From: a virus | Taxonomy: Duplodnaviria; Heunggongvirae; Uroviricota; Caudoviricetes | Reading direction: 5' to 3' (one strand) | IMG/VR virus record: IMGVR_UViG_2778261509_000017 | Length of the DNA: 20,805 nt | In this document: piece by piece, positions 9,001 through 15,000 of the stretch | Layout: the number at the start of each line of letters is the position of its first letter | Position numbering within the stretch: the stretch's first letter is position 1 | Made by a program: the position numbers

Positions 9001-12000
9001 CTGGCGGCACCCAAACGCCCGTCGGGGCCAACGCCAATTGAGTTACTGAAACAGGAATATGAACGCCGGAAAGCGGCTGGTTTTGTTTGAGTTGAGAAGT
9101 AATTTTTACCGGGAGGAAATTTTAATGGAGACAGTTTTTGACGCACTGAAAGCGATGGGAAAAGCCACGTCGGTAGAGCTGGCTGCGCGACTTGATATCA
9201 GTCGTGAAGAAGTACTGAACGAGCTGTGGGAACTGAAAAAGGCTGGCTTCGTTGATAAAAGCGTATACACCTGGCGTGTGGCTGATAACAACGTTCAGCA
9301 GGAACAGCCAGCGCCAGAAGAACAGCCGGAAGAAACCACCACGGCGACAGTAGCGAAAATCTCAGAGTGCGATTTAACCGCGACGATTGAACAACGCGGA
9401 CCACAAACGGCGGATGAACTGGCTACGCTGTTCGGTACAACATCCCGCAAAGTGGCTTCAACGCTGGCAATGGCAATCAGCAAAGGTCGTCTGATTCGTG
9501 TTAATCAGAACGGTAAATTTCGTTACTGCATGCCGGGCGGTAATTTACCAGCAGAGCCGAAAGCGGCATCGGTAGCGGAAACTGATGGTAAAGCCTTTCC
9601 TCAGCCTGCATGTGTTGCGTTACCAGTACAGGAAGCTGCAACACAGGAAGATATTAAAACAGAAACTGTGGCGGACATTGTGCAGCCGCTTGAGAAGCGA
9701 GTGGATAATCTGGTTCTGCCATCGCTGCGACAGGCAAACCGCGAACTGCGTCGGGCGAAAAGTGATATCCGGAAATGGGAGCGAGTCTGTGCCGCGCTGC
9801 GGGAGCTGAATAAATATCGCGATATTGTCGCCCAGCTTTGCCAGGAGGCAACCAGTGAGCAAGATTGACTACCAGGAATTGGCTGCTGCTAACGCTTTCT
9901 TGGCGGATGTGCGGGCTGGGGCGTTTAACGACCTTTGCGCGGCGTTTGTCAGGCACGCAAAAATTGCAGGACTGGACGATGGCGATCTCGTTACGGTGAA
10001 AGAAGTGACTGATGCGCTGCTGCACTGTGCAGAACAGCTTCGGGAGGGATTCAAGCAATGAGTGAATCAAAATGTCAGATTAATGGCAATCAGATAGAGC
10101 CGTGCGCGGCGTTATCAAAATCTCTCGAATATGGAAATCCAACGTTCAAGAGTAAAGGGATATTTATCCCGGAGCGTGTGAACATAAACACTGGCGAGTC
10201 AGGCTTAGATATTGCTCAAATTCACTCTGGGCAATATATCGGTCGTGGCGTTGCAATGTGCTTTTGCCCGTTCTGTGGTGAAAGTCTGAAAACGTGGGAG
10301 AACAGAAATGAATGAAATTAGAGAAATACCAGTAATACGTGATGAATATGGCTGCTGGACGCATCCTGAGTATGAAAAATTCTGTGATGGTAGAGAACAT
10401 ATTTCAACGGAAGAGTTTAACGCATGGATGGAGGAAAATAATCTTCAATGGACCATCAGAACTATGGATGAAGATAATTTTAATCTGGACGCAGATGGTC
10501 CCGATATTGCCTCCTGGAAACCGGAGCGCCCGGAAGGTGATGGCTGGTTCATTGGTTCCATTCATGACACTGAAGATGGTCCTGTTTGTGTATGGCTGAG
10601 AAATAAGGCTGAAGCATAAAGGCGATAAACTACCTGACAACAAAATACTGAAAATTTAAATCAGAAGTGAATTTTATTAAATCCTTAACCGGAGGGATTC
10701 TGCACCCTCAGAACATCAGGAGGCCGTCTGAAAGGGCGGAACAGATAATGCTTACGTTGAAACATTTTATCGACATACCAACATGGTTAGCCGTCATTGC
10801 TTTTGTTAAAATACACATCCACTTTTCTGTGCAATGTTTAACCACTGGTCATATCAAATGGCATTCATGCGAACCATGATATAGAATCATGGCTTGAGAG
10901 AGTCGATGAAAGCGCAACTATGGTATGAGAGACATTGATGTAAGAAAGGCTGTGCATGCCAAGATTCTGAGAGATCATCATAAAGATCCTGACACCCTAA
11001 TCATTGATGAGTTTACGATGAATCTAGGGGCTAGCAGAGCTGATATAGCAGTGATCAATGGACTTATACATGGTTATGAGTTGAAGAGCAAGAGTGATAA
11101 CTTGCTCAGATTACCAGCGCAGGTGCAACATTACTCATCAGTGATGGATAAAGTAACGTTGGTTGTCTCTGATTGCCATCTTTATGATGCTTTAAGCATA
11201 GTTCCATCATGGTGGGGGATAAAGCAAGTTACGCAAGGTGCACGGCAAGGTATCCATTTAAAAACAATTCGAACTAGCAAGTTGAATCCACAAGTGGACA
11301 AACTTTCCTTAACAATGCTTCTTTGGAAAGATGAATTGCTTTCCCTATTAAGTGATGTAGGGGAGCTACAGAATTTGAAAAATAAACCTAAACGCGTCTT
11401 ATGGTCAAAACTCGCCAATAGTATGGATGTTGGCGAGCTTCGTGAAGCTGTTCGAGTTAAACTTAAAGCCCGTAAAGAGTGGCGAGTTGCTCAACAACCT
11501 TAGTTATGTGATGGTTTTGCCCAATCCTACGCCATACCTCTGGGCTACCAAATTTATAGTTACCAGAGGGATTGGCTTTGTAGGCTTGATACTCGTTTGC
11601 ATAATATTCTATGTCTCTATCTCCCGCACAGAATGTAGGCCCTGAATATTCTCGATGAGCAAGAATATCCTCACTATGTTTACCATATTGTTCATAACCA
11701 AAGCGATTAGCTACTCTTCCTCGAAATACCCAAAAGTCATTATCTCCAGAGTATCTGACGCTGGCAGATACGCTAGGGAATCGCGTCGAAAGCCTATTAA
11801 AGTCGGGGTGCTGTACTCCATAATCACTATAAATCACATTTCTGGCAAGTTCTTTTCTATTCATTAAACTCTGCCATAAAATCCACTCGATTCGAGGTTG
11901 AGAATATAGACCAACAGAAATATCACTGAGATCTGTAGGAAATGAACCCCCAGAAAGAATCACTTTTCTGTATTCATTGAGGTGCGCCAGATTGTTTATC

Positions 12001-15000
12001 AATCCCATTGCCAAAGTATATAGTTCGCCGGAATTAAGTTTATCCTCGGTTAACTCATCTCTTAAGTCAATAATTATATCAATATTTGATAAAGGAATTC
12101 CCAGATGATGAATGTAATGCGTTATTAATTGTGGGTTAACCAGATCTAACGTGGTTAATCTCAAGCATATTTCATTCTGTATTAATTCATCAATCGCTCT
12201 TTTATAGTTAGATGGGCGAGTTGGTGAACTGACAGGAATAACTCTTATCCCCATATCTCTAACTTGATTAACCGCATTTATTATAGGGTAATGATCTTCA
12301 GGCGAAATAAAATGCTCTTCAATTAATAATCCATCAATATAAACACCTTGCATATCTGAGCAAGATTTTGAGACTTTCTTTCCGAACTCTATAAGAGTCT
12401 CGTTATAACTCTTTAAGGCAATACCTGAATCAGGGTCAATTGGCACTGGTTCAATTTCGAGTAATGGCAAAATTTTTGATTTCTTTTCAATGGATAGCTG
12501 CGATAAAGCTGATAACTCAGAACGCTTCGCTTTCAGAATAGGAATATATGAAATTGTCATGTTAAAACCTTATACAGAATCAATTAACAATTAATGGTTC
12601 TTCGGACATTGAAATTTATATCGCAAAAATTGGCAAACTCTCCTCGACTACTTACTTGTGGGTATCCTGGCGTAAAAGGAATGACTTGGCAATACCCGGT
12701 GTGATCATAAGTCATTGAAAATGATCATTTTTATCAGTCTTTCTTCCATGATGAATGCTAATGCCATTTGATTTGTTGAGGTGAAAACTGTTAAAAATCA
12801 AAACGATGTAATTGAAATGAACGTTCGGTAGCATTCACGCTTTAAATGTTTCTTTTGTGCTGATTGGATGAATTTTGGTCACTTATGTTGAGAGATGTTG
12901 CAGGAAAAGAAGTTGGCATTGATCTATTGGATAGTTAGAATTGCTGCGGGTGCTTGAGGCTATCTGCCTCAGGCATGAACACCAAAAGGCAGATAGAGAA
13001 AAGCCCCAGTTAACATTCGGCGTCCGGCAAGACGCTTAACATTAATCTGAGGCCATATCTATGCGACACATAGAGATTAGCCTCTTACGGACCGAAAGGT
13101 CAAGGAGAAGCAGGCTATGAAGCAGCAAAAGGCGATGTTAATCGCCCTGATCGTCATCTGTTTAACCGTCATAGCGACGGCACTGGTAACGAGGAAAGAC
13201 CTCTGTGAGGTACGAATCCGAACCGGCCAGACGGAGGTCGCTGTCTTCACAGCTTACGAACCTGAGGAGTAAGAGACCTGGCGAGGGAGAAATCCCTCGC
13301 CACCTCTGATGTGTCAGGCATCCTCAACGCACCCAAATATTGATGCATTACATTGTTGTGTTTGAGAATTTGTTTGAACATAATTTGAACGATATTTAAG
13401 AGGAGATACGCAATGATCCGCAAACTGGTGAGATTGCTTAAAAGTGGTTCAAAGCCGTTCGACATCACTGAAATGCAATTGATGTATGATGAAATCGAAG
13501 AAAAGCAAAGAAAAATTGCTGAGGAAAAAGCAAGGATCAAAGAGGAGCATGCCAATGGATCAAGATTGTCAAGCCGTAGATTCACTATTTGATTACCTTT
13601 ATCTTGACAAAGAGCGCGTAGGTTACTTCACTGCGCAATTATTTCCATCAGGAGTATTGAATGCTGTAAAACAAATCTCGTCCAGTTCTGAGCATTCATT
13701 AAATGAACTTAAAGGTGGCGTTTCATTATTTAATGCCAGGAAAAATGCGGGGGATTCTTTTGCAAAAACGCAAGAGCGGCATTTTGACTCATCATGGTCT
13801 TTACCATTAAATTTTTTTGATAAGTTGCACGAACAAGGCTTGGTGGCAACGAGCTTAGAAAATGCAGAAATTGGAAGTCTGGTGATGGTAAAAGGGCATA
13901 TCAAATTATTTGATGTGAAAATGGCTCATGATGTTCTCCCTATATATAAAGATGCAAAACAAAAAGAACTAAAGCAGACTAAATCACCAGCTCAGAAAAA
14001 AGATATTCAAGAAGAAATTTATCATGCTAAAATGGCTGCTGACATGTTTTCTTTGCTCCCGTTCTCTACACAGATAGAGCTTCTTGACGATCAAGAAAAT
14101 ATATTCTGGATGTCGGTCAAGGCTGATGATTTAGCTTTAGATGTGGGAAATCTTGCATTAAAGTATGGTTCCAGAATACCTGGTGAATGGTATGTCATCG
14201 GTGTTATAGATGCGCTCCCGGATATAAGTGACGAGACAGTTTCAGAGTCAATATTTCCTTCTGACGAAATCAGAGGCACAATAGACTATATGCTTGAAGG
14301 TATTCGTGGAATGATTGGGAGGAGCGAAACTTCCTATGGTATGACACCGCTAGTAATTTTCAGGAAGGTGTCTTAACCGAACTTGTTTTTAGTTTTTTTT
14401 GGCAGATTTTGTCTTTTTTATTATTTATGAGTTACAATCTGTCGCGCTAGCCTGAACAACTGGCACCTGCTGCGCCAGCAGAGAAAACAGATGGCGCACA
14501 AGACCAAATTACACAATTCTGATACCGTTCGTGCCAGCAGGCACGGGCGGTGTTCTCACACATTCAAATATGACTGGTATCAGCACGACCCCTGCACTGA
14601 AGAACAGGCCGAATGGCTGATTCATAACTACCGCAGACGTGGGTATGAGTTTAGGAAAGCCCTCAGCCTCGATTATCGTCACTGGATAATCTACGTCAGA
14701 CTCCCTTATTCCGAACGCCCACCGCGTCCGTCCCGCACATTCCAGCAACGCATCTGGAGGTAACGTGCGGGTATTACTTCGACCTGTTCTGGTGCCGGAA
14801 CTTGGGGTGGTTATCGTTAAGCCAGGTCGTGAATCCATGCAGGTATTCCATAACGGCAGAGTGCTGGTTGAACCGGAGCCAAAAAGCATGCGCGGTCTGC
14901 CGTCCGGAGTTGTTCCCGCCGTTCGCCAGCCGCTGGCGGAAGATAAATCATTACTGCCATTTTTCAGCGATGAGCGGGTGATTCGTGCTGCCGGCGGCGC

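Follow-up and report, generated by a model that had tools for sequence, protein, structure and literature searches.

We analysed a 20,805-nucleotide (nt) stretch of a tailed-phage genome (IMG/VR record IMGVR_UViG_2778261509_000017), hereafter called the window, and in particular an AT-rich region at 10620-14480. The whole window is identical to a part of the genome of E. coli RM10740 (feral pig; NZ_CP043821.1) and is the left half of a Stx2e-encoding lambdoid prophage. Its genes run in the order integrase, exonuclease, dicB, repressor region, ydaT, DnaT-like and P replication genes and DUF1627, followed by small early genes, the AT-rich region and hyp90-DUF968-RusA-DUF1133 (Q-like), and finally by a DNA methyltransferase gene, tRNAs, stx2eAB and lysis genes. 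A first reading of the sequence (the original prediction) had placed here, between the replication genes and the DUF968-RusA-Q block, a single inserted island of 3.9 kb with three AT-rich cargo modules. The position was correct, with DnaT-like, P and DUF1627 on the left and the hyp90 to DUF1133 genes on the right, and all three modules were found, namely a pair of genes of the sce7726 and Beta_protein families, hok with sok, and a cassette encoding proteins of 59 and 273 amino acids (aa). The single island was not borne out. Instead, the early-right region of the Stx2e lambdoid prophage has here a mosaic hotspot for accessory ('moron') genes, in which two variable slots are split by a conserved hok/sok locus, and each slot here holds a compact, AT-rich, horizontally mobile two-gene cassette.

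The cargo of slot 1 (10740..12935; 37.8% G+C) consists of the beta/cII (sce7726) cassette and its own upstream regions. Alignment with prophages carrying other cargo placed its left edge at about 10740-10773, after a conserved intergenic linker (10620..10739, plus strand), and its right edge at 12935. Slot 2 (13335..14397, plus strand; 37.5% G+C), delimited by alignment with the related locus L002, contains the 1,063-base-pair (bp) 59-aa/DUF6414 cassette and is bounded on the left by the hok 3′ end and on the right by the hyp90-DUF968 promoter region. In the base-level comparison with this one relative, the interval is occupied by 13 bp that start a terminator-like hairpin. The alignment with a prophage of the enterohaemorrhagic E. 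coli (EHEC) strain 2013C-4991 was unbroken over 10262-13334 at 96.8% identity, stopped at 13334 and resumed at 14398, indicating that the 59-aa/DUF6414 cassette is a clean 1,063-bp insertion.

Frequencies were counted in 5,426 complete E. coli genomes. The beta/cII module (at least 80% covered) was present in 93 genomes and the DUF6414 cassette in six, so that neither is a core component of these prophages, as had been expected of cargo. The hok/sok segment (12936-13334) was found in 4,726 genomes, with a median of two copies. Five genomes carried the complete arrangement at 98-100% identity. The beta/cII pair and hok occurred without the DUF6414 cassette in EHEC 2013C-4991, in phage Rac-SA53 and in many O26/O111 EHEC strains, and E. 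coli A19, from a vampire bat, had the DUF6414 cassette in slot 2, with slot 1 filled by HNH/DUF551 genes. The cassettes assort independently of each other; 2013C-4991, A19 and the genome survey contradict both constant co-occurrence and presence in all related prophages.

Different content was observed between the same flanks in eight related prophages, in agreement with the hotspot position that had been proposed. In several strains the alternative cargo comprised DUF4014/DUF551/HNH/ead genes, and one related prophage had two minus-strand genes to which no function is assigned. In O157:H7 EDL933 (locus L020, 1166-2618) and in the Sakai prophage Sp9, slot 1, between DUF1627 and hok, contained the adhesin gene paa together with a fimbrial pseudogene, so the same hotspot bears virulence cargo there. 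Slot 2 of O103:H2 contained a YgiW-like gene. Because related prophages hold other cargo and the two cassettes assort independently, these data support a hotspot and not a single insertion. Like the defence hotspots of P2 and P4 and other lambdoid moron loci (PMC9122126), the site is fixed between conserved flanks and receives alternative cargo of foreign composition. It differs from the P2/P4 hotspots in that it belongs to a Rac/Stx-type lambdoid prophage, its two slots are parted by a toxin-antitoxin locus, and virulence genes (paa) are found among its cargo alongside candidate defence genes.

The foreign composition of the cargo was confirmed by a G+C scan and by codon usage. G+C content was 39.4% at 10620-14480, compared with 48.0% to the left and 49.4% to the right of it and 48.6% in the window minus cargo. 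When every 3861-bp window was scanned, the minimum was 39.2% (start 10580), and just 0.5% of positions fell below the value of 10620-14480. G+C at third codon positions (GC3) was 0.326 in the cargo (893 codons) and 0.511 in the backbone (3305 codons from twelve genes), and synonymous codon usage differed between the two (chi-square 233.7, 41 degrees of freedom, p = 8e-29). The original estimate by eye, 35-40% versus 50-60% G+C, was therefore roughly right for the cargo and for the nearest genes (replication P, DUF1627, hyp90 and DUF968, which directly adjoin the region, have 52-56%) but too high for the backbone overall. The AT-rich tract is real as well, although it begins earlier than proposed, near 10049, and is interrupted by hok/sok (52.1% G+C). 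The maximum-scoring AT-rich segment, 10049-14438, takes in two small early genes at 10058..10619 on the plus strand, of 85 aa (phrog_4030) and 103 aa (phrog_1372), known as 'rac21/rac22' in phage Rac-SA53. These have about 43% G+C (GC3 0.43 and 0.34, respectively), which equals the AT-richness of some cargo, and are kept in most related prophages (L002, L005, L006, L021, L022 and L024); they are the left flank and not exchanged cargo. Low G+C alone therefore does not mark exchanged cargo.

The conserved anchor between the slots is a hok/sok type I toxin-antitoxin locus (12936..13334, plus strand). It contains a promoter-like site (12913-12941), a sok region (12948-13119) that matched Rfam RF01794 over model positions 1-157 of 157 (107.5 bits against a gathering score of 59; E = 1.6e-24), a 19-codon leader open reading frame (ORF; 13061-13120) whose stop overlaps the hok ATG, an intact 51-aa hok gene (13117-13272, plus strand; Pfam HOK_GEF PF01848, E = 1.7e-23; cut-off 22 bits) and a 3′ stem-loop (13280-13301). 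In having the Hok ORF, the sok region and an upstream leader ORF that is coupled to the start of hok, the locus agrees with hok/sok of plasmid R1 and with chromosomal and prophage hok loci (annotated hokD). The locus is an ordinary, very widespread prophage member with no notable difference from these, and its composition is that of normal E. coli DNA rather than of AT-rich cargo. In E. coli STEC383 (L021, 4075-4637), a ParE/ParD type II toxin-antitoxin pair lies on the opposite strand exactly at the place of hok/sok, so that one addiction module is replaced by another at the same anchor point.

Cassette 1, in slot 1, encodes two convergently transcribed proteins. The first, a sce7726-family, phage P4 cII-like protein of 192 aa (10925..11503, plus strand), matched NCBIfam sce7726 over its full length (E = 1.7e-56, above the 70-bit cut-off) and the PADLOC 'cll' model (2.4e-28), which represents cII of satellite phage P4. 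Its homologues carry PF26915 Phage_P4_cII, and one database record names a homologue 'MmcB-like'. Residues E29, D40 and E52-x-K54 were invariant in 12 diverse sequences with 26% to 71% identity, P4 cII included, in the order E ... D ... (D/E)xK that characterizes the PD-(D/E)xK nuclease superfamily; a Pfam/PADLOC scan of the sce7726 alignment matched no nuclease family. The second, a Beta_protein family protein of 365 aa (11463..12560, minus strand), is P4 beta-like and PD-lambda-2C-like. It matched Pfam PF14350 over its full length (4.1e-52), and among PADLOC models it was matched best by those of PD-Lambda-2_C (1.3e-41 and 7.5e-38), the 'beta' model giving merely 2.8e-4. Its predicted structure (predicted local distance difference test score, pLDDT, 93.3; predicted template modelling score 0.92) is a TIM barrel, that is, an eight-fold beta/alpha barrel, with a C-terminal helical extension, and invariant Asp and Arg residues fall at or just past the predicted strand ends as placed from secondary structure, not from three-dimensional measurement. 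The 3′ ends of the two genes share 41 nt (11463..11503), where both strands are coding, and an AT-rich non-coding region upstream of beta (12561..12935, minus strand; about 35% G+C) moves along with the cassette.

Prophages from Proteobacteria, Firmicutes and Actinobacteria carry the pair as a conserved, compact unit. The 3′ overlap is again 41 nt in Dickeya, where the pair lies in the gpA-portal hotspot of a P2-like prophage beside HicAB (L007, 6968-7585), in Photorhabdus, where it lies between the lysis and terminase genes of a lambdoid prophage, and in phage Rac-SA53, where it adjoins hok. In Paenibacillus the pair is chromosomal and overlaps by 32 nt, and in Gordonia phage Powerball it lies beside the integrase gene and HicAB (L025, 4805-5397) and overlaps by 89 nt. 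Across loci outside P4, conservation is higher in the cII-like protein than in Beta, with 42% and 25% identity, respectively, in the comparison with Powerball. No conserved third ORF was found beside the pair in the other loci examined. Since HicA/HicB adjoins the pair in two unrelated elements (the Dickeya P2-like prophage and Powerball), HicAB and beta/cII may be a recurrent association.

The closest known relative of this cassette is P4 gop-beta-cII (Rst_gop_beta_cll; Ghisotti 1990, Rousset 2022), which protects against lambda and P1 (PMC9122126) and is set off by orf184, a phage accessory gene, to kill the cell (bioRxiv 10.1101/2023.04.06.535777). Both systems have convergent genes for Beta and cII/sce7726 homologues (in P4 the order is gop, then beta, convergent with cII), and both are non-essential cargo of a mobile-element hotspot. 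Identities to the P4 proteins are 28-29% for the cII-like protein and about 23-29% for Beta. In contrast to P4, the cII-like protein has 192 aa rather than 264 aa, the two genes overlap by 41 nt rather than being parted by a terminator with no overlap, and the gop toxin gene was not found in the window (tblastn with P4 Gop, no match in the region). Short ORFs flanking the pair were considered as a hidden gop, namely ORFs of 43 and 40 aa with an ATGA overlap upstream of beta and hydrophobic ORFs of 43-70 aa upstream of the cII-like gene. None is conserved in Dickeya, Photorhabdus, Paenibacillus or P4, and we therefore regard them as chance ORFs of AT-rich DNA. We also rejected the idea that hok stands in for gop beside beta; hok occupies this site in thousands of beta-less prophages, and the pair occurs elsewhere without hok.

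A second related system, PD-lambda-2 (Vassallo 2022), shares its beta-like component C with the window's Beta (the PADLOC match of 1.3e-41 given above); this third component is required for defence and dispensable for toxin neutralisation (PMC9519451). In the window, however, the partner of Beta is the cII-like protein with its nuclease-type motif instead of a HigB-like protein A and a HigA-peptidase B. Components A and B gave no PADLOC match in the ten ORFs of 9855-15811, and no HigB- or peptidase-type Pfam match was obtained among the ORFs scanned in 9059-15811. Compared with the sce7725/sce7726 pairs of NCBIfam, the 192-aa protein is a full-length sce7726 member, whereas its Beta partner had no NCBIfam match at E≤0.01. 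As judged from sequence, the beta/cII pair is a self-contained mobile unit and a gop-less relative of P4 gop-beta-cII and of PD-lambda-2C.

Cassette 2, in slot 2, begins with a gene for a charged, helical 59-aa protein (13413..13592, plus strand; phrog_29688, 1.3e-17) with a conserved C-terminal motif, NGSRLxxxRFTI. The last 38 nt of this gene overlap the start of the gene for a DUF6414-family protein of 273 aa (13555..14376, plus strand; Pfam PF19952, 1.3e-7). With 32.1 bits the 273-aa protein weakly exceeds the Pfam cut-off of 25, which 27 of its 28 relatives also pass, and a profile of the DUF6414 subfamily retrieved 1,360 representative clusters from public data, all of them single-domain proteins of about 265-330 aa. 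A gene of about 59 aa was present upstream of DUF6414 in every homologous locus examined, and the layout is kept down to 27-35% identity. The 38-nt overlap is the same in the loci of Enterobacterales and Moraxella; in Methylomagnum, the most distant, the genes are adjacent and do not overlap. The contexts of the cassette are diverse. It lies beside a Shedu SduA-like gene in Enterobacter, inside tail modules in phages of Pantoea and Moraxella, and in the immunity region beside the repressor in Rac-like prophages, and it is also found in Methylomagnum.

Dodola, a defence system, consists of DolA and the ClpB-like DolB (Millman 2022), and the domain of DolA is DUF6414 (bioRxiv 10.1101/2024.10.26.620412). 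The 273-aa protein passes the Pfam threshold for this domain but matched no PADLOC Dodola model; its homology suggests that it comes from a divergent branch of the DUF6414 family, which includes Dodola DolA. Its partner is the overlapping gene of about 59 aa, in contrast to the ClpB-like DolB of Dodola, and no ClpB-like gene was found in the window or in any of the nine homologous DUF6414 loci examined. Judged by its layout, the 59-aa/DUF6414 pair seems to be of a toxin-antitoxin-like type and to act as a moron. Searches of the sce7726, Beta and DUF6414 proteins against the PDB, by sequence and by profile, gave nothing significant. In the literature on PF14350, sce7725/sce7726 and DUF6414 we found no functional study beyond the gop-beta-cII, PD-lambda-2 and Dodola works cited here.

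We consider it probable that both cassettes of this two-slot moron hotspot are anti-phage systems of an abortive-infection or toxin-antitoxin-like type that are expressed in the lysogen. Cassette 1 would then be the gop-less core of P4 gop-beta-cII. Its sce7726/cII-like protein, with the PD-(D/E)xK motif, would be the likely toxic effector and cut nucleic acid, and the TIM-barrel Beta would be a sensor or regulator that restrains or activates this effector upon phage infection. We infer this division of labour because the nuclease motif is invariant, the cII-like protein is the better conserved of the two, and Beta is a predicted TIM barrel with invariant Asp and Arg at strand ends. The convergent 3′ overlap would hold the beta and cII-like genes together and may couple their expression. 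In cassette 2, the antitoxin-like 59-aa protein, translated from a frame overlapping the DUF6414 start, would neutralise or regulate the DUF6414 protein, and the cassette would act without the ClpB-like partner of Dodola. hok/sok would stabilise the prophage region through post-segregational killing and may add phage exclusion.

Several observations weigh against this interpretation. The proposed defence role of both cassettes is deduced from homologous components of larger systems and from the genomic surroundings, and the known toxin of the P4 system is Gop, which was not found here. The label 'nuclease' that the original prediction gave to the sce7726 protein stands as far as the conserved motif goes; sequence and profile searches of Pfam and the PDB gave no match. 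The fold matches of Beta are those of a generic TIM barrel and point to no substrate. At E≤1, neither the DUF6414 protein nor any of its 27 relatives was matched by a PADLOC model, except for one Cas11f match of one relative (E = 0.038) that was taken as chance, and the AlphaFold2 model of the DUF6414 protein, which is of moderate confidence (pLDDT 76), had no match among solved folds (best E = 0.27, template modelling score about 0.16). In addition, promoter- and terminator-like sites were no more numerous than in shuffled sequence, so that expression in the lysogen is an assumption and just individual plausible sites are reported here.

A more far-reaching reading, which we regard as possible but on the whole doubtful, is that beta/cII is an autonomous two-gene abortive-infection system present in several phyla and that the 59-aa and DUF6414 proteins form a new, ClpB-independent toxin-antitoxin-like defence. 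The TIM-barrel Beta would in that case sense infection, or make or consume a small molecule, and so control the PD-(D/E)xK nuclease; the antisense 3′ overlap would be part of the regulation, and P4 Gop would be a later addition. It is unlikely that the cassettes are instead selfish addiction modules of the toxin-antitoxin type that serve only to maintain the prophage or themselves, with no action against phages. In favour of this reading, hok/sok is a classical system of post-segregational killing, with ParDE in its place in one relative, both cassettes resemble toxin-antitoxin loci in their overlapping genes, and gop/beta was originally described as a toxin-antidote pair, according to the citation in PMC9122126. 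The homologous P4 and PD-lambda-2 systems, however, protect against phages (PMC9122126, PMC9519451), and the cassettes occur in known defence hotspots, that is, in the P2 gpA-portal locus and beside a Shedu SduA-like gene.

Distinctly less likely is a role in the lytic cycle of the prophage itself, in recombination, replication or host takeover, like that of the lambda nin-region genes. Beta is encoded against the direction of early rightward transcription, the pair is carried by phages of very different types at different positions and by just 93 of the 5,426 genomes, and close relatives of this prophage do without it, although the cassettes do lie among early-right accessory genes beside RusA and DUF968/HNH and gp32 of Powerball is annotated 'exonuclease'. 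We judge it highly improbable that the three modules arrived in one insertion as a single horizontally acquired island of 3.9 kb. At coarse resolution the AT-rich tract is contiguous, and the five genomes with the complete arrangement would fit a common arrival, but the central hok/sok has 52% G+C and is found without either cassette in about 4,700 genomes, insertion of the DUF6414 cassette is clean when compared with prophages already having beta/cII and hok, and strain A19 has that cassette without beta/cII. Because the slot 1 content of A19 differs, secondary deletion from a common island is also argued against.

AT-rich morons in prophage hotspots are a well-known general phenomenon, and the region as such is an ordinary cargo hotspot. 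What stands out here is the gop-less gop-beta-cII relative and the DolB-less DUF6414 pair, both of them little studied. The hotspot lies just upstream of the late regulatory region in lambdoid prophages of pathogenic E. coli, those with Shiga-toxin genes among them. Defence candidates, toxin-antitoxin loci and virulence genes such as paa are exchanged at this site, which therefore shapes both how susceptible these strains are to phages and which virulence genes they carry. The gop-less beta/cII pair could reveal the role of the conserved core of P4 gop-beta-cII and PD-lambda-2, and the 59-aa/DUF6414 pair could offer a first handle on DUF6414. Both gene pairs are compact and tractable by experiment.

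Part of the linker that precedes slot 1 is a 64-bp element (10676-10739) with an AGGAGG ribosome-binding site. The element matches no Rfam family; in a scan of 9800-15000, sok was the sole Rfam family matched. On its own, the element matches >2,000 E. coli genomes at module junctions. Elsewhere it lies just upstream of DUF4014/DUF7167 genes, and locus L006 has two copies. It resembles a linker that module junctions have in common. The right flank (14398..15811, plus strand) belongs to the backbone and consists of a promoter-like site (14409-14438), the 90-aa gene hyp90 (14491-14763) and the DUF968/HNH gene (14765-15811).

Further from the hotspot, RefSeq annotates a truncated pseudogene with its N-terminus missing at 5152-5667, between dicB and the repressor. 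Two tRNA genes with anticodons CAT and TCT lie at 18418-18671, upstream of stx2e, and between them RefSeq has a 'tRNA-OTHER' at about 18501-18581 that was not called by ARAGORN. The genes for the A and B subunits of Stx2e (18762-19997) are likewise AT-rich (42% G+C; GC3 0.36-0.44) and are a second compositionally foreign cargo locus in the window.

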